A DNA stretch of 64,000 nucleotides from Candidatus Poribacteria bacterium (GTDB lineage Bacteria > Poribacteria > WGA-4E > WGA-3G): assembly GCA_963663765.2 (NCBI GenBank), contig CAXXUA010000005.1, positions 1,184,001 through 1,248,000 of the forward strand, given 5' to 3'. Both the position numbers and the translations under genes were made by a program. Of the stretch, positions 10,245-36,495 are shown one piece after another. How positions within the stretch are numbered: position 1 is the first letter of the stretch; the number at the start of each line of letters is the position of its first letter. The notes under the pieces were generated by a model that saw only the letters and a program-made list of their open reading frames with translations, searched no databases and was not told where the DNA came from.

Positions 10245-11121
10245 GAGCGTATCTCATAAATATTAAATGGTTTGATTTTTTCTTTTAATTTCTCATCATC
10301 TCTGCTAAACTTTATCTATTTCTACTATAAGTAAGGGGATGATTTGAATGGAACTTAGTGATAAGGAATGGGAAATTATTGAACCCCTAATGCCAGAACC
10401 ACCATCGGATAAACCGGGGAGACCTTGGCGTGGTAACAGAGAAGTGTTAGATGGGATACTGTGGGTGTTGCGAACAGGAGCTCCCTGGCGGGATTTACCA
10501 GAAAAGTATCCACCCTATCAAACCTGTCATCGTCGTTTTCAGCAATGGTCATCGGATGGAACGCTTGAAAAAGTTCAAATGGTACTCACAGAAATGCTTG
10601 AAAAACGAAAAAAAATAAATATGAGTGAGTGTTGTATTGATGCGAAATTCGTTCCTGCCAAGAAAGGAGGCATTTGTGTTGGTCCAACGAAGTGCGGCAA
10701 AGGGACAAAACTGGTAGCGATTACAGAAAAGTCTGGTAGACCTGTGAGTGTTCTGATTACAAAGGCTTCTTGTCATGAAGTGCGCTTGGTTGAACCGGCA
10801 TTGGATGCGTGTTGGACATCCGAAAACCCCGCAGTGTTGATTGGGGACAAAGCTTATGACTCTGATCCTTTAGATGCTTCTTTGAGGGAACGTGGTATTG
10901 AAATGGTAGCACCTCATAAAAAGAATCGTAAAAAACAGGCTACACAGGATGGTCGGCGTTTACGACGGTATAAGCGTCGTTTCAAAGTAGAAAGATTTTT
11001 CAGTTGGTTAGAGGATTATCGGCGTTTAGTTGTTCGTTGGGAATACTACGCTGAAAATTATTTAGGTTTTGTACTTCTTGCTTGCATACGTATGTCACTA
11101 AAATATTTATGAGATACGCTC
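10245..11121 (+). mobile_element. IS5-family insertion sequence (IS427-like), apparently intact
   Basis: 20-bp perfect TIR GAGCGTATCTCATAAATATT, TA on both flanks, single transposase ORF inside. Confidence 0.92.
10348..11112 (+). CDS. IS5-family DDE transposase
   Basis: WVLRTGAPWRDLP, CIDA, GDKAYDS and RFKVERFFSWL motifs. Confidence 0.95.
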   Translation: MELSDKEWEIIEPLMPEPPSDKPGRPWRGNREVLDGILWVLRTGAPWRDLPEKYPPYQTCHRRFQQWSSDGTLEKVQMVLTEMLEKRKKINMSECCIDAKFVPAKKGGICVGPTKCGKGTKLVAITEKSGRPVSVLITKASCHEVRLVEPALDACWTSENPAVLIGDKAYDSDPLDASLRERGIEMVAPHKKNRKKQATQDGRRLRRYKRRFKVERFFSWLEDYRRLVVRWEYYAENYLGFVLLACIRMSLKYL

Positions 11122-11642
11122 TATATACTCATTCAATTGAAACACTCAAAAATGGCGAAGGTATTGATAATATATAATAATTATTTAATATATGTATATA
11201 CTATTATTATATATTATGTCATGTTATTATCATTCTGCAGAATATTCTTACATAAAAACATACAATATTATGAGTAAGTTGTTGAAAAAACAATTGCCTT
11301 AAAATATGATAGTCATCAATGATATAATAACTTAAAAGCATACACAACAATTGTCTGTTCTCTTTTTCAATTTTACATTTTTTGAGATTCTAATGGTAAA
11401 ACCTGTTAGTTTATGTTATAGTATTATCATTTATGGACATAATACACTTTTTATATGATTATAATTATATTTATCGTCTCATAAAGAATACTAATGTATA
11501 GAATTTATATTATCAGGACTTACGCAAAAAACCGGAAGGCGTACTTTGTAAGCACTCCAACCGTGTAAGAACTATGTTATTACCGAATTAATAAAATAAA
11601 CTTCATCAAAAGTATGCAAGAATTAGTCTATTTGTTAAACCT

Positions 11643-14600
11643 ATGAATACATTATCTGACATTATTGAAAGATGTCATAAACGACATTTAAAACCTTTGC
11701 GGCAACGTAGAACGGTAATGCATAACAAAAAAGGTACACGTCAGTATACAGTGTATTGTGCGCATAAGAGTCCGATACCACTCTCTGATCTTGAACAAGC
11801 AAATATATCCTTCATGCCTATTGGACGCGCCCCACATCACGATCATGGACCTTGGGATTTTAATGGTAGTCGCTTTTTGAAACGTCAGCAGAATAATGAT
11901 TGGACCACAGATCAATGGAAAACATCTTGGGGCATTCAAGTCTATACAGGTTATCCATCTGAATATAACAACGCAAATTGGCATGATCTATTATTCTGTT
12001 TTGATGCTATTTGTAAGAAGCCTGATGCTGTGGAAGCATGCATTACCGGTTTAATTAACGCAACAACAAACCCACTCTTGACTATTACTGCGTCTGGAGG
12101 TTTGCGTTTTTCTTGTAGAATTACTGATTATCTACATCCAAATTATGAAGAGGAACGATTTTATATCTATAAACATACTCCTACATCTGATGATCCTTAC
12201 AGATGCGAAGTATACTTGGAGATTCTTGGTGAAAAGGGTTATAGCTGCTGGGATGCACGCTATGAAATTATCCTTGGAAACATTTTGAATCCACCAGTGA
12301 TGAACTTAGATGTATTGCATGCTCATATTGATACTCTTCGTAATGAACTACATCGTCCAATACCCCCTCAGAAAGTCACTATTAAACCTATTTTACTCTC
12401 AGTGAATGATTTACCTGATTCATTAGGATCACAAAAGTTAGATCTTGCAAAAGAAGCATTATTAAAACGTGGATTTATCTATTCTAAGCATGAAAAAAGT
12501 GTTTTCTCATGGTACCGTAAAATAGATGGTATGGATACAGTTCTGGTTTCCCTTTGGGAAGAAGATGGTGCTGTTTGGATACGCGCTTCAAAACCTAAAG
12601 TCGGATTACCAACAGAAGCAACGCATATTACTGATGTTTGGGTTGACACTGGAATTAAACCAAAAGTATCTGATAAATTAAGAGCAGTACGTGATGGAAA
12701 ATTAAGTCCATTAGCATTAAAAAGACCAAAAACTATATTACATCTGTCAAAAAAGAACAAAAGAGTTTATGAAACGCAGCAAGAGCAACTCAAAAGAATT
12801 CAAAATGTTTTTCAGAAAAATGCCCCCATTCAAGGTCTTATCGCAAATAGAGCCATACGTAAAAGGTACTTAGTTGAACACTTTGCTACAAATAATGATG
12901 TAATCTGCTTAGTTTACCCAAATTTAACTAAAGCAGATGCAGCATCAAAATACCTTCAAGAAAACTGTACGCAGTCTATTGGTTTCTGGAAACCTCGGAG
13001 ATATCAATGGGAACAAGTGAAAGATATTCCAGTTAAGGTGCGAATGGCAAAACCGTTTCAGCATGGAAATGTATGTGAAGATTCAGACCGCTGCTTAGCT
13101 CTTGAGAGAAAAGGTGGCGATCCAATCAAAAGTATATGTCCACAGTGTCAAGTCTATGCAAAATGCAAGGAAAAAGGATATTTAGCACAGACTAAAACTA
13201 TAAAAAGTAAAGATATACAAATTTTGCCCTTGGATCAAGTCTGTTTAGATCCTTACTATAAAGAATCTATGGACAAAATATTTACCGAATCAGAACAAAT
13301 TGAAAAAAATGAAGGCAAAAAAGGATTACAAAAACTATTTGTTATTGAAGATGTAGACATAGAAAGTTTATTTCCAAAATACAATTTTGATATAAAAGTC
13401 TTGGTTGAGTGGAGTTTGAATTGGGATGGACATATTTTAGGTAACTTTGCGAAAGCCTTGTTGAACGTACTAAAATTACCGAATGAAACAGATGGGGATT
13501 CTATAAAACGAGTACGCGCAACGCTCAAAGTGTTTAACACACATGAACAAGAACTAATCTATCAAATGTGTCACATTAATCTAAATGTTAATGTCATTCC
13601 AAAAGGGGTTGTTGATGCTGAAAGCGGAAAAGAATTAGCACATTACACCGTTTTATTTGAAAGTGGAACATCAGCATATATTCCACTGAACAAAGATGCC
13701 GCAGCATTACTTGAGAAAAGAAACATTCCTTATCTTGAATTGTATAATTCTGCAATAAGCCAAAACATGAAAATCCCTCTAACAATGGAAAAAGCAATCA
13801 GGTTAGGTGCTCTAAGTGTAGATACATTAGAAAGTATTGATACTTTTCCAACGGTATGTGAGAATCCAAAATGGACAATTTGGCATCAGCTTAAGTGTTT
13901 TTTTAATTACTATCGCCGTGATGATGACATACCAATAGAGTGGGATGAGGAACATATTAGTTTCAGATTACCACCCATGCTTCATTCAAGTATAAAACGA
14001 CTTTTACTCTCATCCATTAAAATTCGAAAAAAGTATATTCAAGCTGCGTTTCCAAATGATACAATTATTACTACTCACATAAAACCGACAGAATGGTGTT
14101 CCGGACATCGAGTTTTCCAACTACGGTCAGGTTATATTACTTTTCAAAACTTAGTTGAATACGATACAAATATAGACAAGATAAGACCAACAAGCACTGG
14201 TAGACAGTTTATTTACAGTATTCGATCTGAAATAGACAGAGATACTAACAAAAAACACGCAATTTTTACGTTCAAAAGACTTACGGATTGGATGTCTGAT
14301 ATTTCAGAACAGGAAAACGTATGTCTTGTGAATTCCTTTGCAGAAACAGTAACATCTATAGATGAACAGATTGAAGAAGCAGATATAATTTGGATTATTG
14401 GTATTCCAATCTTTGGACATAGTAACATTTGGCAAAAAGCAAAATTGTTGTACGGTAAGGACACTGAACCCCTTTCGTATGGAATTGATTTAGATGATGT
14501 TTCTTATAAAGACAAACGCGTTCAATATCTATTTGAACAATCTGTAATTAGTTTCTTCACACATGTTCTTGATCATGCGAAATTAACCCAACTTACAAAC

Positions 14601-15041
14601 AAAACAATAGTAATTGGAACAAGTTTTTACATACCAGATGTCACTGATCGACCTGAAACACAATTATTTGATTGGGAAGATTTGGAAGTTGCTGGTGGTT
14701 TGCATAAACTCACTGAATCAATCCAAACACGACAACGTTATGAAGAAGAAAGTAATAACATATCCACCGAAACCAGTCGGATTGAAATAGAACGTATCTT
14801 TGGATGTTCCCCAAGACAAGCGAACCGTATATTGAACAAACTACGTGGTGGAATTATCCCACGTGTTACATTCAGAGAGCAGATATTATCCCTGCTTGCA
14901 GATGGTGAAAAAAGAACTGCAGAAATTGTTGACTCAATTGATGGACATCCTAAAGCAATTAATTCCGAACTTACACGATTAGTCAAATCCGGTGTTATAC
15001 TCAAAGTACGACATGGTGTGTATAGAAAATCTGTAACTTAA
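11643..15041 (+). CDS. Large hypothetical protein (degenerate Prim-Pol-like / Cys cluster / helicase-like / HTH); paralog of 33067-36495
   Basis: Open 1132-aa ORF, collinear with the 1142-aa ORF; C-terminal winged-helix pattern REQILSLL...ELTRLVKSGVILKVRHGVY; product name is inferred. Confidence 0.75.
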   Translation: MNTLSDIIERCHKRHLKPLRQRRTVMHNKKGTRQYTVYCAHKSPIPLSDLEQANISFMPIGRAPHHDHGPWDFNGSRFLKRQQNNDWTTDQWKTSWGIQVYTGYPSEYNNANWHDLLFCFDAICKKPDAVEACITGLINATTNPLLTITASGGLRFSCRITDYLHPNYEEERFYIYKHTPTSDDPYRCEVYLEILGEKGYSCWDARYEIILGNILNPPVMNLDVLHAHIDTLRNELHRPIPPQKVTIKPILLSVNDLPDSLGSQKLDLAKEALLKRGFIYSKHEKSVFSWYRKIDGMDTVLVSLWEEDGAVWIRASKPKVGLPTEATHITDVWVDTGIKPKVSDKLRAVRDGKLSPLALKRPKTILHLSKKNKRVYETQQEQLKRIQNVFQKNAPIQGLIANRAIRKRYLVEHFATNNDVICLVYPNLTKADAASKYLQENCTQSIGFWKPRRYQWEQVKDIPVKVRMAKPFQHGNVCEDSDRCLALERKGGDPIKSICPQCQVYAKCKEKGYLAQTKTIKSKDIQILPLDQVCLDPYYKESMDKIFTESEQIEKNEGKKGLQKLFVIEDVDIESLFPKYNFDIKVLVEWSLNWDGHILGNFAKALLNVLKLPNETDGDSIKRVRATLKVFNTHEQELIYQMCHINLNVNVIPKGVVDAESGKELAHYTVLFESGTSAYIPLNKDAAALLEKRNIPYLELYNSAISQNMKIPLTMEKAIRLGALSVDTLESIDTFPTVCENPKWTIWHQLKCFFNYYRRDDDIPIEWDEEHISFRLPPMLHSSIKRLLLSSIKIRKKYIQAAFPNDTIITTHIKPTEWCSGHRVFQLRSGYITFQNLVEYDTNIDKIRPTSTGRQFIYSIRSEIDRDTNKKHAIFTFKRLTDWMSDISEQENVCLVNSFAETVTSIDEQIEEADIIWIIGIPIFGHSNIWQKAKLLYGKDTEPLSYGIDLDDVSYKDKRVQYLFEQSVISFFTHVLDHAKLTQLTNKTIVIGTSFYIPDVTDRPETQLFDWEDLEVAGGLHKLTESIQTRQRYEEESNNISTETSRIEIERIFGCSPRQANRILNKLRGGIIPRVTFREQILSLLADGEKRTAEIVDSIDGHPKAINSELTRLVKSGVILKVRHGVYRKSVT

Positions 15042-15059: not shown

Positions 15060-15375
15060 GTGATACTCACGACGCCTAAAGTCGTGTGCTTCTTTGAAAC
15101 ACATAACTCTCCTCTGTGTGATTCCTGCTTCCGTCTCTCGTGCCTCTATCCTGAACTGCGTGAGGTCTTATTCGGACTCCACAAGCGTTTATGCTCTCTG
15201 TCTATCATACAGCGAGGGTTCTTAGGTTGATTGCAGCATTTATGTCTCTATCTATTTGATAGTCGCATTGACTGCAATGATAAGTTCTCTCTGATAGCGT
15301 CAAATCATCTTTCTTGTGTCTACAACGACTACAAGTTTTGCTTGAAGCATAGAATTTCGGTGCTTGTAATACCAT
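15060..15375 (-). pseudogene. tnpB: IS200/IS605 TnpB 3' remnant with right end / omegaRNA region
   Basis: FYASSKTCSRC...YHCSQC...DRDINAAINL (Zn ribbon plus RuvC-III), then a subterminal hairpin CACGACTTTAGGCGTCGTG and TCAC end motif at 15063-15060 on the minus strand. Confidence 0.85.
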
Positions 15376-15388
15376 TCTCATGTGATAA

Positions 15389-15504
15389 TGTCTCATTAGC
15401 AGCGGAAATCTGGTAGGAGCGACCTCCCGGTCGCGACCGGGAGGTCGCTCCTACCGAAGAGAGTAACCCCCTGCCAGTAAACAGTAGAATTCCTTAATGA
15501 GACA
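15389..15504. mobile_element. Small MITE-like element enclosing a 44-bp perfect palindrome
   Basis: TGTCTCATTA / TAATGAGACA ends; GGTAGGAGCGACCTCCCGGTCG-CGACCGGGAGGTCGCTCCTACC at 15412-15455; no clear TSD. Confidence 0.6.
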
Positions 15505-17520: not shown

Positions 17521-19422
17521 CTACTTGCTTTGTTTAGGTGTAAGTTTCCAATGGAGAATAGTTCCATCCCGATTCCCACTTACTAATGTGTTACCATCCG
17601 GACTATACACAACGATTGTGCGGTAAGGTGAATTTCCCTTGAAGGTGTGCAAGACCACACCAGAGGTTACATCCCACAAACGGATAGTATCACCAAAACT
17701 CCCACTTGCGAGTGTTTTTCCATCAGGACTGAATGATACACATCCAACCCAACCCTTATGTCCGTTGAGAGTTCGCAAATGCCCTCCTGATTCGGCATCC
17801 CACAAACGAATGGTTTGATCCCAACTTCCGCTTGCGATTACTTTACCATCTGGATTGAACGATACACTTTCGACCGTTCTCTTATGTCCTTTGAGGGTCC
17901 GCAAGTGTGAACCGGTGACTACATTCCACAAGCGAATAGTTTTGTCCTCACTTCCACTTGCAAGGGATTTGCCATTTGGACTAAACAAAACGCTATAGAC
18001 TTTAGATTTATGATCCGCAAAAGTACGCAAATGTGCACCAGAGACCACATCCCATAGACGGATAGTTTTGTCATAACTTCCACTTGCGAGCGTCTTACCA
18101 TCAGGACTAAATGACACACTAACCACGGCATTCGTATGTCCGATAAAAGTGCGTAAATGTGCGCCAGAAACAGCATCCCACAGGCAAATAGTTTTGTCCT
18201 GACTCCCACTTACGAGGGTTTTCCCATCCGGACTGAAGGATACACTTTCAACAGGATACTCATGTCCCTTGAAAGTGCGTAAGTGTTGGCTGGATTTGGC
18301 ATCCCACAAATGAATGCTGTTGTCAAAATAACCTCCATACCCTCCTGCAATTGTGTTGCCATCCGGACTGAAAGATACACTATGGAGACGACTCGTATGT
18401 CCGGTGATAGTACGTATATGACTACCGGAAGTTATATCCCAAAATCGGATGGTTTGATCCCAACTTCCGCTTGCGAGGGTTTTACCATCAGAACTGAACG
18501 ATATGCTTCGGATCACACCCGTATGTCCCTTGAAAGTGCGTAAGTGCGCCCCAGATGCTACATCCCACATACGGATGGTTCGATCCCAACATCCACTTGC
18601 CAGTGTTTTACCATCAGGACTGAACGATATGCTTTCGACATTATCTTTATGCCCTTTGAGAATACGTAGGTGATCACCGGGTTCAACATTCCACAATCGG
18701 ACGACACCTCCCTTACTACTGCTTGCGAGGGTTTTACCATCAGGACTGAAGGATACACTTGTAACACCAGAATTATGGCTTCTGAGGATTTTTTGTCTTT
18801 TGAATGTCCACAAATGCGCGCCAGAAAATACATCCCATAGGTGGATGAAACCGTCTTCATCTCCACTTGCAAGTATACTACCATCTGGACTAAATGATAC
18901 GGTTGTAATTTTACCTTTATGTTTCATGAAAGTGTGCAAACGTTCACCGGATTCGGCATCCAACAGATTAACAACATTGTCACTACCCCCATTTAACCCT
19001 CCAATTGCCAGGACTTTACCATCAGGACGATATATAATTGTATAGCCAGAATGTGTTGTAAGTATTCGTAGATGTGAACCCGTTGCGACATCCCACAGAC
19101 GGACGTTGAGTCTACTCACACCCGCAAGTGTCTTCCCATCAGGACTGAATGATATGCTATTGACACGTGCTGTATTTCCGATGAGGAGGTTCAGTTCTTT
19201 TCCATTCTTGGCATCATATAACCAAATACCTATTTCACTCGCAACAGCCAGCAGTGTTCCATCTGGTGAATACTTAATCTCTTCTATCGTGCTTTTACCG
19301 AGGCGAGCTGTTGCGCCTTCGGGTAGTTTCCACTTTATGTAGTCTTGTGCAAAAGTGGATGGTAGGATAAACGCTGAAAAAATTAGTAGCGTCAAAACAA
19401 TTGAAACTAATGTTGTTTTCAT
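17521..19422 (-). CDS. Secreted WD40-repeat protein
   Basis: Signal peptide followed by about 14 GH...SVSFSPDGKTLASGS.D.TIRLWD repeats. Confidence 0.95.
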   Translation of the reverse strand: MKTTLVSIVLTLLIFSAFILPSTFAQDYIKWKLPEGATARLGKSTIEEIKYSPDGTLLAVASEIGIWLYDAKNGKELNLLIGNTARVNSISFSPDGKTLAGVSRLNVRLWDVATGSHLRILTTHSGYTIIYRPDGKVLAIGGLNGGSDNVVNLLDAESGERLHTFMKHKGKITTVSFSPDGSILASGDEDGFIHLWDVFSGAHLWTFKRQKILRSHNSGVTSVSFSPDGKTLASSSKGGVVRLWNVEPGDHLRILKGHKDNVESISFSPDGKTLASGCWDRTIRMWDVASGAHLRTFKGHTGVIRSISFSSDGKTLASGSWDQTIRFWDITSGSHIRTITGHTSRLHSVSFSPDGNTIAGGYGGYFDNSIHLWDAKSSQHLRTFKGHEYPVESVSFSPDGKTLVSGSQDKTICLWDAVSGAHLRTFIGHTNAVVSVSFSPDGKTLASGSYDKTIRLWDVVSGAHLRTFADHKSKVYSVLFSPNGKSLASGSEDKTIRLWNVVTGSHLRTLKGHKRTVESVSFNPDGKVIASGSWDQTIRLWDAESGGHLRTLNGHKGWVGCVSFSPDGKTLASGSFGDTIRLWDVTSGVVLHTFKGNSPYRTIVVYSPDGNTLVSGNRDGTILHWKLTPKQSK

Positions 19423-33066: not shown

Positions 33067-36000
33067 ATGAAACGTCTAAAAAAACTTATAGCACGATGCC
33101 ATGAAAGGCATATAAATCAACTTCAACAACGAAAAACATCAGTAGCACCTGCCGTATACAATATAGGTATCCCTTACGAATATACTGTTCACTACTCACA
33201 TGGACGTTCTGTTAAACTCCAAGAACTTGAAGAAGCGAACATCTCCTTCTCACCAATTGGACGTGCCCATGAAAACAACCCAGACCTAAGATCGTATACC
33301 GGCAAACGAGATAATCAACTTTCAAAAACACAAACAATAGGAAGTTGGGAACCGCACCGATGGCGAAAATCATGGGGAATTCAGGTGTACACTGGCATCC
33401 CCTCTGAACGCTACGGCACACAATGGCACGATGTCAATATCAGATATGAGGCTATTTGTGATGCGCCAGATACTGTCTTCACATGTATTGAAGCACTAAC
33501 AAATGCTGTCGTGAACCCACTATTGACAATAACAAAATCTGGTAGTATACGACTTTCATTCAGAGTCCCGGATTACTTACATCCACATGAGGAAAAAGAA
33601 AGACTATATATCTATAGACATACACCTACAACAGATGATCCAGACCAAAACACCTTATACGTTGAAATTTTAGGTGAGAAAGGATATAGTCGTTGGGATG
33701 CGCGTTATGAAATCTTACTTGGAGATCTATTAGACCCACCCATTATTTCAAAAGACCTTCTCTTTGCTCCTATTGATATACTACGCGATCTACTCCATGA
33801 ACCATCCAAAGAAAAACAAGGAGCATCCAAACCAAATAAGATCAATGTTAAAGGGGTATATAATCAACCACCACTTACTCTTGGTTCACGTAGACTTGAT
33901 CTCGCCAAAGAAGCGTTTTTAAAACGTGGTTATACCTACATTCAACAAAATAATGATTTTCACCACTGGACACTGCATGACACAATTGATCGCAACAAAC
34001 ATATCACGCTATGGGATCGTAACGGGACTGTGTGGGTCCGCGCTGCTGCTCCCGGTTTTGGATTGCCAATTGAAACAACACCCATAACAGACATCTGGAA
34101 AGATACAGGTATCCTGCCACAAATTCCAACGGCTGTAATGCCATCATCCCATAATGTTCTTGCTGTTCGACAAGGTGAAATCAGTCCATTGGCGATAAAA
34201 CGTCCTATTCCTATACTCTCTAAGGAAGATCACACTGAAAATAAAATCCCAGACCTTATTCAAAACACTACCGAATTACAGGATCTCTATAATAGCGAAG
34301 CACGTATTCTTGGATTGAAAACGGATGTGGACACAGTAGAAAATAGTCATATAGAATCTTATCTGCCAAAGGATTGCGCAATATGTCTCAACGCACAAAC
34401 ACCTAAACGCGCAAAAAAAATAGAACAAGATTTAAAGGAACAAAACGTCCCATCATATACGCAATGGAAACCACGAAAATATCTGTGGGAACAAGTAAAA
34501 GAGATACCCATCAACGATAGAATCGCAGAACCTTTCAAACACGGAAATGTTTGTATTGACGCAGAACGGTGCGATGCATTGATAGAAAAAGGAGGAGAAC
34601 CGAATGAAACTATCTGCCCGCAATGCCCCGTTCATAAAGAGTGCAAACAACACGGATACTTGTCCCAAATTACCACATTACAAAACTCAAACATTCAGGT
34701 TTTAGCGTTTCCCTATCTGTTTTTCAGTCCACAATATAATACACTTGCAGAAGAAATTCTTAAACCGATCCACAATACTCACCGATTTTGTATTGTAGAT
34801 GCAACAAAACACCCCAATTTGTTTCTTAAGCATAGACTTGCAATTGAGATGTTGAAAGAATGGAGTGAAGATTGGAAAGACGAACCGTTAGGCAACTTTT
34901 CAAGTTTACTACTAATTGCTTTACAAGTTAAAGGTAGGTTTGATGACGAATCTGTCGGTAGAATCCGCTCAGTGCTCCAAGCATTTCAACCACAAGAAGA
35001 AGTTATTTGTAAACAAATGTGTCAAGTAAATATACCCTGCAAAGTTGTTGAACGTGGTTATGTTGATCCTGACACTGGCAAAGAACTGTCTCAATTTACG
35101 ATAGTTTTTGACACAGGACATGATGCATACATTCCTATAGATGACAGGGCAGAAAATACTCTTAAGGCACTGAATCTCCCTTTTTTACAGCTGCAATCTT
35201 TTGAAGTTAACAAAAAAATAAAAGTACCTATGCAGATGGCACAAGCAATCCAGTTAGGTGCTTTGAATATAGAAACCGTTGAGAAAATTAAGAACTTCCC
35301 AACAGTTTGCTCAAATCCAAGTTGGACAGTTTGGCATCAACTCAAAAGTTTCTATAGATATTTCAAGCAAGATGAAGATGCACGAGTAATGTGGGATAAA
35401 AAGGTGTTTGAGTACCAAATTCCCCCTGTGCTGCACCCAAATATCAAACGCCTATTAGTAATATCAAAAAATTTGTCAGAACAGTATCTCAGTAGGATTT
35501 TCCCCGGTGAGGTCGTTGAGGTAAAACACCTTGATCAAACTCAGTGGACTCAAGGTAACAAGTTTTTCCAGATTCGGACAGGTATTTATCCTCAAGAAAC
35601 AATTTTAGATTACAACGAAAATTGGGATGTAATCGGGTTTAGTGAAACAGGCAACAGATTTTTTACCGGTGTTTTGAAAGAAATTGAAAAAGACCCAACC
35701 ATATCACATGCAATCATCACATATTCAGCAGCAATCAAACAACTAACAGAAATCATAAATAGAGAAAATGTCTATTTCCTACAGCATCCTATAGATAACA
35801 CTAAATACAACAACATTCTTGAAAAAACACAAGTCACATGGATCATCGGTGCACCTGAAATACCACAAGGACGTATATGGCGAACAGCACAAACCCAGTT
35901 CGGAAGTGACGAGATCGCTCTTAAATATGAGAAAGATACGGAGACCGGTCTCTATATTGACGAAAGGATGCAGCATATTTATGAACAGAATATTACTGAA

Positions 36001-36495
36001 GTGCTCAGACAAACTTTGGCTAATTTGCAGTTGGACAGATTAACAGGAAAAACGGTGATACTGTTAAGTGGTTTGGCTGTACCAAGTATCACCTATAATG
36101 CAGAAACACTCCTTTTTGACTGGGAGGATTTTGAAGTGGCAGATGGTCTTAATAAACTACCGGAAGTGATCGCGACCCGACAACAATTTGAAAAAGATCG
36201 ATATAACCTGACAGCAAAATCCAGCAGACAAGAGGTGGAAAGAGTCTTAGGTTGTTCGCCAAGACAAGCAAACCGTGTATTACAAAAGTTTCGTGGAGGT
36301 GCACGTTTACGTGTGCCTTTCCGTGATCAAATCCTATCTCTCCTTACAGATGGTAATAAAAAGACCTCCGAACTCGTTTATGCTATTGAAGGCAACCCAG
36401 AAGCAGTTAAGAATGAACTAAAACGCCTCATAGATAGAGGCGAAATCGTTCGTGTTCAACGTGGATTGTATGCTTCCACAAAAGATAGCACTTAA
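33067..36495 (+). CDS. Large hypothetical protein, paralog of 11643-15041
   Basis: 1142-aa ORF sharing WGIQVYTG, EILGEKGY..WDARYEI, the Cys cluster, LFDWED.EVA, GCSPRQANR and the C-terminal winged helix. Confidence 0.75.
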   Translation: MKRLKKLIARCHERHINQLQQRKTSVAPAVYNIGIPYEYTVHYSHGRSVKLQELEEANISFSPIGRAHENNPDLRSYTGKRDNQLSKTQTIGSWEPHRWRKSWGIQVYTGIPSERYGTQWHDVNIRYEAICDAPDTVFTCIEALTNAVVNPLLTITKSGSIRLSFRVPDYLHPHEEKERLYIYRHTPTTDDPDQNTLYVEILGEKGYSRWDARYEILLGDLLDPPIISKDLLFAPIDILRDLLHEPSKEKQGASKPNKINVKGVYNQPPLTLGSRRLDLAKEAFLKRGYTYIQQNNDFHHWTLHDTIDRNKHITLWDRNGTVWVRAAAPGFGLPIETTPITDIWKDTGILPQIPTAVMPSSHNVLAVRQGEISPLAIKRPIPILSKEDHTENKIPDLIQNTTELQDLYNSEARILGLKTDVDTVENSHIESYLPKDCAICLNAQTPKRAKKIEQDLKEQNVPSYTQWKPRKYLWEQVKEIPINDRIAEPFKHGNVCIDAERCDALIEKGGEPNETICPQCPVHKECKQHGYLSQITTLQNSNIQVLAFPYLFFSPQYNTLAEEILKPIHNTHRFCIVDATKHPNLFLKHRLAIEMLKEWSEDWKDEPLGNFSSLLLIALQVKGRFDDESVGRIRSVLQAFQPQEEVICKQMCQVNIPCKVVERGYVDPDTGKELSQFTIVFDTGHDAYIPIDDRAENTLKALNLPFLQLQSFEVNKKIKVPMQMAQAIQLGALNIETVEKIKNFPTVCSNPSWTVWHQLKSFYRYFKQDEDARVMWDKKVFEYQIPPVLHPNIKRLLVISKNLSEQYLSRIFPGEVVEVKHLDQTQWTQGNKFFQIRTGIYPQETILDYNENWDVIGFSETGNRFFTGVLKEIEKDPTISHAIITYSAAIKQLTEIINRENVYFLQHPIDNTKYNNILEKTQVTWIIGAPEIPQGRIWRTAQTQFGSDEIALKYEKDTETGLYIDERMQHIYEQNITEVLRQTLANLQLDRLTGKTVILLSGLAVPSITYNAETLLFDWEDFEVADGLNKLPEVIATRQQFEKDRYNLTAKSSRQEVERVLGCSPRQANRVLQKFRGGARLRVPFRDQILSLLTDGNKKTSELVYAIEGNPEAVKNELKRLIDRGEIVRVQRGLYASTKDST

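Follow-up and report, generated by a model that had tools for sequence, protein, structure and literature searches.

A catalytically degenerate member of a predicted primase-helicase family expanded in sponge-associated Poribacteria

What keeps a 3.4-kb bacterial gene intact when its product has the layout of a replication enzyme and none of the catalytic motifs? The question is raised by a gene in a 64,000-nucleotide stretch of a Candidatus Poribacteria genome (assembly GCA_963663765.2, contig CAXXUA010000005.1, positions 1,184,001 to 1,248,000), which we analysed as a whole and refer to as the window. At 11643-15041 on its forward strand lies an uninterrupted open reading frame (ORF) that begins with ATG and encodes a protein of 1132 amino acids, P0001; there is no other long ORF at this position. 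An initial annotation, made from the letters alone, had described P0001 as a domesticated derivative of a primase-helicase with degenerate active sites, and every sequence string that it quoted is present in the translation, in the order given. Our analysis confirmed this observation and partly supported the interpretation as a whole. It is very likely, judging from the family alignments, that P0001 descends from such an enzyme and is catalytically dead. The fuller reading, in which P0001 would stem from the replication initiator of a mobile element and be kept by selection as a DNA-binding protein without enzymatic activity, we regard as reasonably probable.

Results

Relatives of P0001 carry the motor motifs that it has lost. 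A phmmer search with P0001 recovered 418 representative clusters of homologues at E<=1e-3 and 145 at E<=1e-30 (best E 0), while a word-indexed search returned 1305 proteins, every named one of which is a Candidatus Poribacteria hypothetical protein. We separated a subfamily of about 1,130 residues that is at least 40% identical to P0001 (n=128) from distant members, which are full-length and less than 40% identical to it (n=67), and scored four motifs in both sets: Walker A, Walker B, motif VI and the N-terminal D.[DE]. Relatives do keep Walker A, Walker B and D-x-D, and the family consensus has a complete set of superfamily 2 (SF2) motifs. Among the distant members, Walker A is present in 62, Walker B in 64, motif VI in 60 and D.[DE] in 53, and 45 have all four. 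The corresponding counts for the subfamily are 56, 75, 54 and 84; all four motifs are kept in 28 of its 128 members and lost in 15, P0001 included.

None of Walker A, Walker B, motif III or motif VI is recognizable in P0001 (Table 1). The two eroded sites that had been proposed, GLIANRAIRK for Walker A and FVIED (residues 566-570) for Walker B, proved to be exact, since relatives carry the motifs in those very columns; the erosion of motifs III and VI goes beyond what had been listed. As for the proposed helicase module, the motor body stands, and its class is SF2, with DEAH-like motifs. Residues ~345-1130 of P0001 match P0042, P0072, P0076 and other proteins at phmmer E-values of 1e-50 to 1e-75. 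When 38 distant members were compared with Pfam one by one, eight matched DEAD (best E 1.4e-5), two ResIII, eight BT4734-like_N (best E 8.6e-23) and four PriCT_2, and most had some C-terminal helix-turn-helix (HTH). The homology of P0001 to motif-bearing DEAD/ResIII proteins indicates that it descends from an SF2 ATPase of which it is not an active member. A profile built from intact members gave weak matches in the PDB to DEAH proteins through motifs I and III (DHX36, E 0.0035; Prp43, E about 0.01), as well as weak matches to UvrB, XPD and WhiB, and the motif III position aligns weakly with motif III of the DEAH helicases Prp43 and DHX36. By its predicted domains, the family is a primase-type N-terminus joined to an SF2 ATPase with a four-cysteine (Cys4) insertion and an HTH.

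Motif loss has been stepwise. A FastTree phylogeny of the subfamily calls for at least 7 changes of the Walker A state, as against about 42 when labels are shuffled. Within the clade that contains P0001 (support 1.0), P0001 and P0153 have lost all four scored motifs, Walker B survives in P0154 and P0003, and D-x-D together with Walker B in P0155, a series that points to decay in steps. A further element, the CHC2 zinc motif, occurs in 41 of the 68 distant members, and all 127 subfamily members have it deleted. P0153, a relative of metagenomic origin, has an intact frame of 1,131 codons and is 79% identical to P0001 overall and 74-88% identical in every region.

Conservation is uneven along the protein. 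On average, P0001 is 59% identical to the subfamily over residues 96-250, 63% in the Cys4 region and 58% in the C-terminal winged helix-turn-helix (wHTH), a value that drops to 34-43% in the former ATPase parts; column entropy among 27 copies from the genus ranks the regions in the same way. Having lost Walker A and B, motifs III and VI, the second Asp of the N-terminal motif and CHC2, P0001 is not expected to carry out canonical ATP binding, ATP hydrolysis or nucleotidyl transfer. The best-kept parts are the N-terminal core, the Cys4 site and the wHTH, so P0001 most likely acts without catalysis. The wHTH shows no hypervariability, and it is therefore improbable that every paralogue recognizes a DNA site of its own.

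A cysteine cluster and a winged helix are retained. The initial annotation had noted a five-cysteine pattern, and the exact spacing in P0001 is C478-x5-C484-x14-C499-x2-C502-x5-C508. All five cysteines are present, and four are conserved; C484 is not invariant. In a 64-sequence alignment the only invariant columns are C478, C499, C502, C508 and D957, and each of the four cysteines is kept in 125 of 127 subfamily members and in 68 of 68 distant members. The C-x2-C-x5-C type of four-cysteine spacing is linked to 4Fe-4S sites of DNA enzymes, and we regard the cluster as a putative metal site, either Fe-S or Zn.

The HTH string and terminal winged helix are likewise present as described, with a profile match to the winged helix that lies just below threshold: Pfam AbiEi_4 scores 21.8 bits (E 2e-4) with P0001 and 24.8 bits with P0002, a second family member encoded in the window, against a cut-off of 25 bits, and the PADLOC AbiEi model gives E 4e-4. 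Sub-threshold wHTH matches in the last ~50 residues were all that Pfam, NCBIfam, PHROGs and PADLOC returned for P0001 and P0002. The family profile matched only wHTH chains in the PDB (MarR and AdcR/ZitR-type, E about 6e-4), and P0001 searched alone against PDB sequences gave nothing below E 0.1.

The N-terminal domain resembles a primase in motif order. TITASGGLRF (residues 147-156) and LEILGEKGY (residues 192-200) follow a motif I-like segment, and together they had been compared with the motifs of archaeo-eukaryotic primases (AEPs). In Kazlauskas et al. 2018 (PMC5862659), AEP motif I is given as hhhDhD/E, with two acidic metal ligands, motif II as sxH and motif III as hD/E; according to its introduction, the second acidic residue of motif I coordinates metal. 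The order seen in the family, G-x-x-x-T-G...D-x-D, then S-G-G-x-[RH], then an acidic residue in a beta-strand-like YLE, agrees with this scheme. P0001 has neither the two acidic ligands of motif I nor the sxH of motif II, and its nearly invariant YLE193 is a candidate for motif III.

The family consensus for motif I is D.DF.Y, which reads WHDLLF in P0001 and WHDVNI in P0002; the second acidic residue is Leu in P0001, Val in P0153 and Asn in P0002. The 64-sequence alignment thus bears out the replacement of a family D-x-D/E by DLL. A second proposed sign of erosion, His changed to Arg in SGGLRF, did not hold: the Arg is found family-wide, and because it is common to relatives with all other motifs intact, it is no mark of inactivation. 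P0045 alone has a His version (SGGQHFYF), and BT4734-type relatives have SPSGxGxK.

Distant full-length homologues carry BT4734-like_N and PriCT_2 at the same N-terminal position. In a protein-language-model search (Atlas), in which residues 1-345 of the homologue P0003 stood in for the P0001 N-terminus, 28 of the 30 nearest named clusters were Prim-Pol PF09250, which we take as a lead only; further leads of this kind were clusters annotated Prim-Pol, PriCT_1 with RepB_primase, and BT4734-like_N with ResIII and DEAD. For an AEP-type N-terminus, then, motif order and the true AEP domains of distant homologues speak in favour, and profile similarity to AEP families does not. AEP membership of the P0001 N-terminus is plausible but unproven, and this part may instead be a different primase-like domain swapped into the position of BT4734-like_N.

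The genome holds many old paralogues. The label "copy 1" given to this gene was apt, because P0002, a full-length paralogue of 41% identity, lies in the same window (Table 1). The impression of a single odd gene was not: P0001 occupies one of about 9-11 loci per genome. The window genome (6.35 Mb, 15 contigs) gave 13 matches at 11 loci, comprising eight uninterrupted ORFs of 1071-1144 residues, one ORF with a single in-frame TGA and two fragmentary copies. Pairwise identity among the paralogues is 41-52%, with one pair at 76%, which indicates that they are old. D-x-D is kept in none of the full-length copies. Only one of nine, L002 on contig C15, keeps both Walker A (GAGKT) and Walker B (IIDE), and its motif VI is itself altered (GLTGLTR); its orthologues in G006, G002 and G003 keep Walker A. 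The intact type of ~1,030 residues has no copy in the window genome.

Across the phylum, 86 of 150 other genomes have a match at E<=1e-10. These fall largely into one family, f1 (82 of 99 genomes; 33 of 37 in genus g1 and 48 of 57 in g9), with 3 of 26 in f3, 1 of 2 in f6 and none in the remaining 23 genomes. Within the genus, the number of matches per genome ranges from 0 to 12.

Several features of the arrangement of these loci were also recorded. Four family loci lie within about 110 kb of contig C6 of G000, and tandem pairs of family genes occur in several genomes of the sister genus (e.g. G084, G064, G120, G129). Giant ORFs (>2,300 to >2,600 residues, mutually 49-66% identical) adjoin L005, L009 and L011 (G000, contigs C6 and C3). 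The 800-bp upstream regions of L003, L004 and L007 (G000, contigs C6 and C5) have tandem arrays of a ~31-nt unit in common.

Degenerate copies are under purifying selection and stay in place. The ratio of non-synonymous to synonymous substitution (dN/dS, NG86 method) between degenerate copies was 0.10 (L013/L014), 0.12, 0.15, 0.23 and 0.25, with no region reaching 0.4; for a single pair of very recent origin it was 0.37 at dS 0.07. A degenerate sister lineage is syntenic in G002, G006 and G012, where the flanking ORFs are 85-99% identical, and has one flank in common with G000 and G003; in addition, G003 carries a recently duplicated copy at a new site. These observations indicate that degenerate relatives of P0001 are resident genes rather than pseudogenes or hopping elements. 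P0001 itself is solitary and intact, as initially described, and belongs to a family that looks domesticated. An active mobile element was considered and rejected, as the loci have no terminal repeats, recombinase partner or near-identical copies and the sister lineage is syntenic. No neighbouring gene is common to the 11 loci within 8 kb, and their flanks have no terminal sequence in common except genome-wide repeats, and no integrase partner. In 18 genomes of the same genus we found no orthologue of P0001; the best match is 49% identical and has no neighbour in common.

The P0001 locus and its flanks. The surroundings of the gene are as initially described: P0001 sits between an insertion sequence (IS) of the IS5 type and a TnpB remnant, behind some 500 bp of AT-rich DNA, and has no operon partner, in that no same-strand partner was found and no neighbour is common to the paralogues. 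The transposase ORF looks intact (DUF4096 and DDE_Tnp_1), and the remnant comprises 63 residues of a TnpB/Cas12f TNB zinc-finger domain. Past it lie the housekeeping genes for a 3-hydroxyacyl-CoA dehydrogenase and a TP_methylase-family protein. GC content is 0.25 in the 600 bp upstream of P0001 (of which 530 bp are intergenic), as against 0.41 in the genome and 0.355 in the gene; P0002 is preceded by about 770 bp of AT-rich DNA. The AT-rich upstream regions contain no iterons, only two-copy repeats of 11-21 nt, and promoter-like sites near P0001 (21) are not in excess of shuffled sequence (19.4 +/- 4.4). The P0001 DNA is present in 5 sequencing runs, which come from 2 studies, with word shares of 0.94-1.00.

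Table 1. Features of the P0001 locus and of its paralogue in the window (positions are those of the window).
Feature	Position	Strand	Basis or remark
P0001 ORF, catalytically degenerate member of the Poribacteria ~1,130-aa subfamily	11643..15041	+	ORF, homologues, alignment
IS4/IS5-family DDE transposase ORF, upstream of P0001	10348..11112	+	
AT-rich intergenic region 5' of P0001, GC about 0.25	11113..11642	.	Base composition, repeat and promoter scans
N-terminal conserved domain, residues 1-250, AEP/Prim-Pol-like by motif order alone	11643..12392	+	Alignment; profile tests negative
Motif I-like GIQVYTG...WHDLLF, GIQVYTGYPSEYNNANWHDLLF, residues 97-118	11931..11996	+	Family D-x-D/E, here D-L-L
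Motif II-like TITASGGLRFSCR, residues 147-159	12081..12119	+	Alignment; Arg family-wide
Motif III-like YLEILGEKGYSCWDARYE, residues 191-208	12213..12266	+	Alignment; E193, D204, R206 and Y207 nearly invariant
Former Walker A, GLIANRAIRK, residues 398-407	12834..12863	+	Relatives TGxGK (xETGxGKxY)
Trp449 codon, TGG in P0001	12987..12989	+	TGA column of the sister clade; boundary of N-terminal part and Cys4/ATPase part
Cysteine cluster C478-x20-C499-x2-C502-x5-C508 between Walker A and B positions, putative metal (Fe-S or Zn) site	13074..13166	+	Invariant columns
Former Walker B, KLFVIEDVD, residues 564-572	13332..13358	+	Relatives I-x-D-E (RLxIxDE); here acidic pair E-D
Former SF2 motif III, RLLLSSIKIR, residues 786-795	13998..14027	+	Relatives MSATL; here LSSIKI
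Former SF2 motif VI, FFTHVLDHAKLTQLT, residues 971-985	14553..14597	+	Relatives QAxGRARLNR; here HVLDHAKLTQ
C-terminal HTH (GCSPRQANRIL) and winged helix	14760..15038	+	Sub-threshold profile matches; mean entropy 1.06 bits among paralogues
Terminator-like hairpin followed by a T-run, 27 nt past the P0001 stop	15068..15086	+	Consensus scan alone
TnpB/Cas12f remnant, downstream of P0001	15205..15396	-	
P0002, 1142 aa, 41% identical full-length	33067..36495	+	Without D-x-D (DVN), Walker A, Walker B, III, VI

Two further features lie downstream. A near-perfect, GC-rich palindrome of ~44 nt (GGTAGGAGCGACCTCCCGGTCGCGACCGGGAGGTCGCTCCTACC) is found at 15413-15460 of the window. Its half-site has 917 matches at 310 loci genome-wide, as befits a repetitive extragenic palindromic (REP)-like dispersed repeat, and it lies near 5 of the 11 family loci, which is not clearly above chance; with 310 loci in the genome it is not specific to the family, and we rejected it as a family element. 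A 633-residue WD40-repeat protein is encoded at 17521-19422 (-), 2.5 kb downstream of P0001. Its paralogues (33-52% identical) adjoin the family copies L002 and L009. WD40 genes are likewise neighbours of the intact type in G010 and, in G002 and G006, of the copies that keep Walker A. This proximity could be a coincidence in a WD40-rich genome.

A sister clade carries an in-frame UGA at the domain boundary. Sixteen family copies, spread over 14 genomes of the genus and all outside the window, have one in-frame TGA at the column of Trp449 in P0001. They are L004 (G000:C5:1801545-1804916, minus strand) and, from 13 other genomes, L013-L018 and L050-L058; the first seven that were fetched form one clade with 65-94% amino acid identity. 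The codon stands in the context CGC TGA AAA CC, and 12 nt further on comes a segment of 17 nt, identical between copies, with a predicted 7-bp hairpin (about -9 to -10.6 kcal/mol). Equivalent 6-nt pairing reaches 5-6 of 6 positions in 16 of 16 TGA copies, as against 1 of 20 copies that encode the same peptide without the TGA. The comparisons L013/L014, L013/L015 and L013/L016 gave omega of 0.12-0.22 upstream and 0.03-0.17 downstream of the TGA, indicating purifying selection on both halves. An ATG four codons 3' of the TGA is present in only 9 of the 16 copies, which disfavours reinitiation. The genome encodes tRNA-Sec, and TGA is otherwise a stop codon; an Rfam scan gave nothing at the gathering score. 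The TGA with its hairpin looks as if it served programmed read-through, or the insertion of selenocysteine, where the primase-like part meets the motor, and in this clade recoding at a domain boundary could be put to the test.

Discussion

From replication initiator to resident DNA-binding protein? The ancestral protein would have combined a primase-like domain, CHC2 (as in intact relatives), a DEAH-like SF2 motor with the Cys4 site, and a C-terminal HTH or winged helix. From these domains one would expect that in intact relatives the HTH binds DNA, the ATP-driven SF2 motor unwinds it and the N-terminal domain primes synthesis. P0001 would then be a regulator, blocker or scaffold on DNA recognized through its wHTH and Cys4 modules, and its type a resident chromosomal gene that spreads through occasional local duplication. 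As to a mobile origin, the intact ~1,030-aa type is present in the same genus in a prophage-like region: in G012 its ~1,048-aa representative lies among two CI/Cro-like repressors, a ParB-like protein with a phage Dam methyltransferase, and an M23/endolysin-like peptidase. In G010, the intact member of ~1,028 residues, L033 (G010:C71, 397-5578, minus strand), is 3.4 kb from a SIR2_2 gene and a gene for a 1,354-residue NACHT/STAND NTPase, a pair that resembles a defence locus.

A number of results weigh against this reading. The AEP-like fold and the RecA-like lobes of P0001 are drawn from sequence comparison, and at the N-terminus the profile tests were negative: hhalign of the N-terminal profile with BT4734-type N-termini gave a probability of 0.5% (E 0.12), Pfam AEP models matched 0 of 20 N-terminal sequences even at E<=10, the same profile had no match among PDB sequences (best E 0.52), and 14 shorter proteins that share the N-terminal domain of P0034, an intact-type member, have no Pfam annotation. 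The sole pointer to DNA binding by P0001 is its sub-threshold wHTH matches. With P0034 as query, tblastn found no match in phage records or plasmid records, and neither P0034 nor P0001 has a relative in viral contigs; because no phage, plasmid or viral relative was found, a mobile-element origin is something that we infer from one neighbourhood and from domain logic. No DNA of a close P0001 orthologue turned up in viral, metagenome or genome contigs. More generally, relatives of P0001 are absent from the metagenome contigs, and in the genome contigs they are confined to 6 loci of Poribacteria metagenome-assembled genomes at 31-47% identity. For the P0001 lineage, selection is deduced from its sister lineages and from the fact that both P0001 and P0153 have intact frames, and P0001 has the lowest GC content (0.355) of the genome's paralogues (others 0.39-0.45), which, along with its long branch, is compatible with relaxed constraint.

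Could P0001 then be a functionless relic of an integrated element in the course of decay? All catalytic motifs are lost, the flanks are an IS transposase and a TnpB remnant, the search of 18 same-genus genomes yielded no orthologue, the number of copies differs between genomes (0 to about 12), the genome also holds fragmentary copies, and the low GC fits as well. We give this little credence, given that a frame of 1,132 codons would be unexpected in DNA of 35.5% GC without selection, the P0153 frame is intact too, equally degenerate sister lineages have dN/dS of 0.10-0.25, and the Cys4 site and wHTH are intact. The opposite extreme, a live minimal replicon or mobile unit made up of a rep gene and an origin, is very improbable. 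A rep-like gene does follow about 500-770 bp of AT-rich DNA in both window copies, and duplicates do arise at new sites (G003b, dS 0.07), but there are no iterons, no common termini beyond genome-wide repeats and no shared integrase or transposase, and the paralogues are old (41-52% identity), their sister lineages syntenic and their catalytic motifs dead.

Two readings leave the protein closer to enzymology. Other ATPase complexes contain inactive paralogues alongside active ones, and P0001 might be the non-catalytic subunit of a hetero-oligomer with an ATPase-competent L002-type paralogue: exactly one of nine full-length copies keeps Walker A and B, and orthologues in G006, G002 and G003 keep Walker A. 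This seems unlikely to us, as the motif VI of L002 is itself altered and the only match found in G017 is L027, which is ATPase-dead, so that dead copies can exist without an active partner. It is also improbable that P0001 is still an enzyme in which the motor alone is dead and the N-terminus works through non-canonical residues. The N-terminal core is among the best-conserved regions, D115, E193, D204 and R206 are kept, and relatives that are fully intact have the Arg of SGGLRF too; set against this, the second acidic residue of motif I is gone, and 44 of 128 subfamily members are without D.[DE]. A more speculative role, which we think rather doubtful, is that the dead paralogues form a host immunity or exclusion system against elements that use the intact ~1,030-aa type. 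The dead proteins would occupy origins, or poison the replisomes of invaders, through the surfaces for DNA recognition and protein contact that they would have kept from a phage or plasmid primase-helicase, in the N-terminal domain, the Cys4 module and the wHTH. The low variability of the wHTH weakens only the version in which each paralogue would have a different DNA site. If true, exclusion would explain the expansion in this lineage, the swings from 0 to ~12 copies, the repeated and independent loss of motifs and the purifying selection.

Comparison with known systems. Plasmid replication proteins of the pRN1 ORF904 type combine a prim-pol domain, a helicase and a winged helix, and their motor is of superfamily 3 (SF3). 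The order of primase domain, NTPase motor and C-terminal winged helix is the same as in the P0001 family; the differences are the SF2 motifs found here, the lack of detectable sequence similarity, and a P0001 that is dead and not plasmid-borne. The pRN1 Primpol/PriCT-1 is mentioned in PMC5862659, which also describes AEPs of the all3500 family fused to pVOG1685/9714, UL9-like SF2-like helicases, in mobile elements. As characterized there, these fusions resemble the P0001 family in uniting a primase-type N-terminus, a divergent SF2-like motor and DNA-binding modules in one polypeptide, and in having a helicase part only remotely like known SF2 families. In contrast, we found no sequence link to the all3500/UL9 models, the P0001 family has its Cys4 between Walker A and B, and P0001 is a multi-copy chromosomal gene without catalytic motifs.

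The nearest relation in domain content is to proteins with BT4734-like_N and PriCT_2 (PF08800, PF08707), which form the N-terminus of P0076, P0098 and 6 others of the 38 distant members, in front of the Cys4-SF2-HTH body; an Atlas cluster among the nearest is annotated BT4734-like_N (85%), ResIII (65%) and DEAD (20%). P0001 differs in that its N-terminus has no PF08800 match and no significant profile similarity to these. TldRs, the nuclease-dead repressors derived from TnpB, are an analogy of process only: in their case a mobile-element enzyme is reported to have lost catalysis and to have been retained by the host as a DNA binder. They differ in belonging to an unrelated family and in being RNA-guided, and a regulatory role of P0001 would be a hypothesis by analogy.

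A family without a database model and what it may tell. No Pfam, NCBIfam, PHROG or PADLOC model covers the family, and a literature search on it found no paper; the supplements of PMC5862659 may list related architectures. Judged by its predicted domains, it joins primase-type modules to an SF2 motor of a kind not described before, in which a putative four-cysteine metal site separates Walker A from Walker B. It has more than 1,300 members, and in one family of sponge-associated Poribacteria a genome can contain as many as a dozen of these 3.4-kb genes. Intact, half-decayed and dead members exist side by side, so that the steps of domestication can be read, and the family offers a clear bacterial case in which a large replication enzyme appears to have given rise to a pseudo-enzyme family kept by selection.

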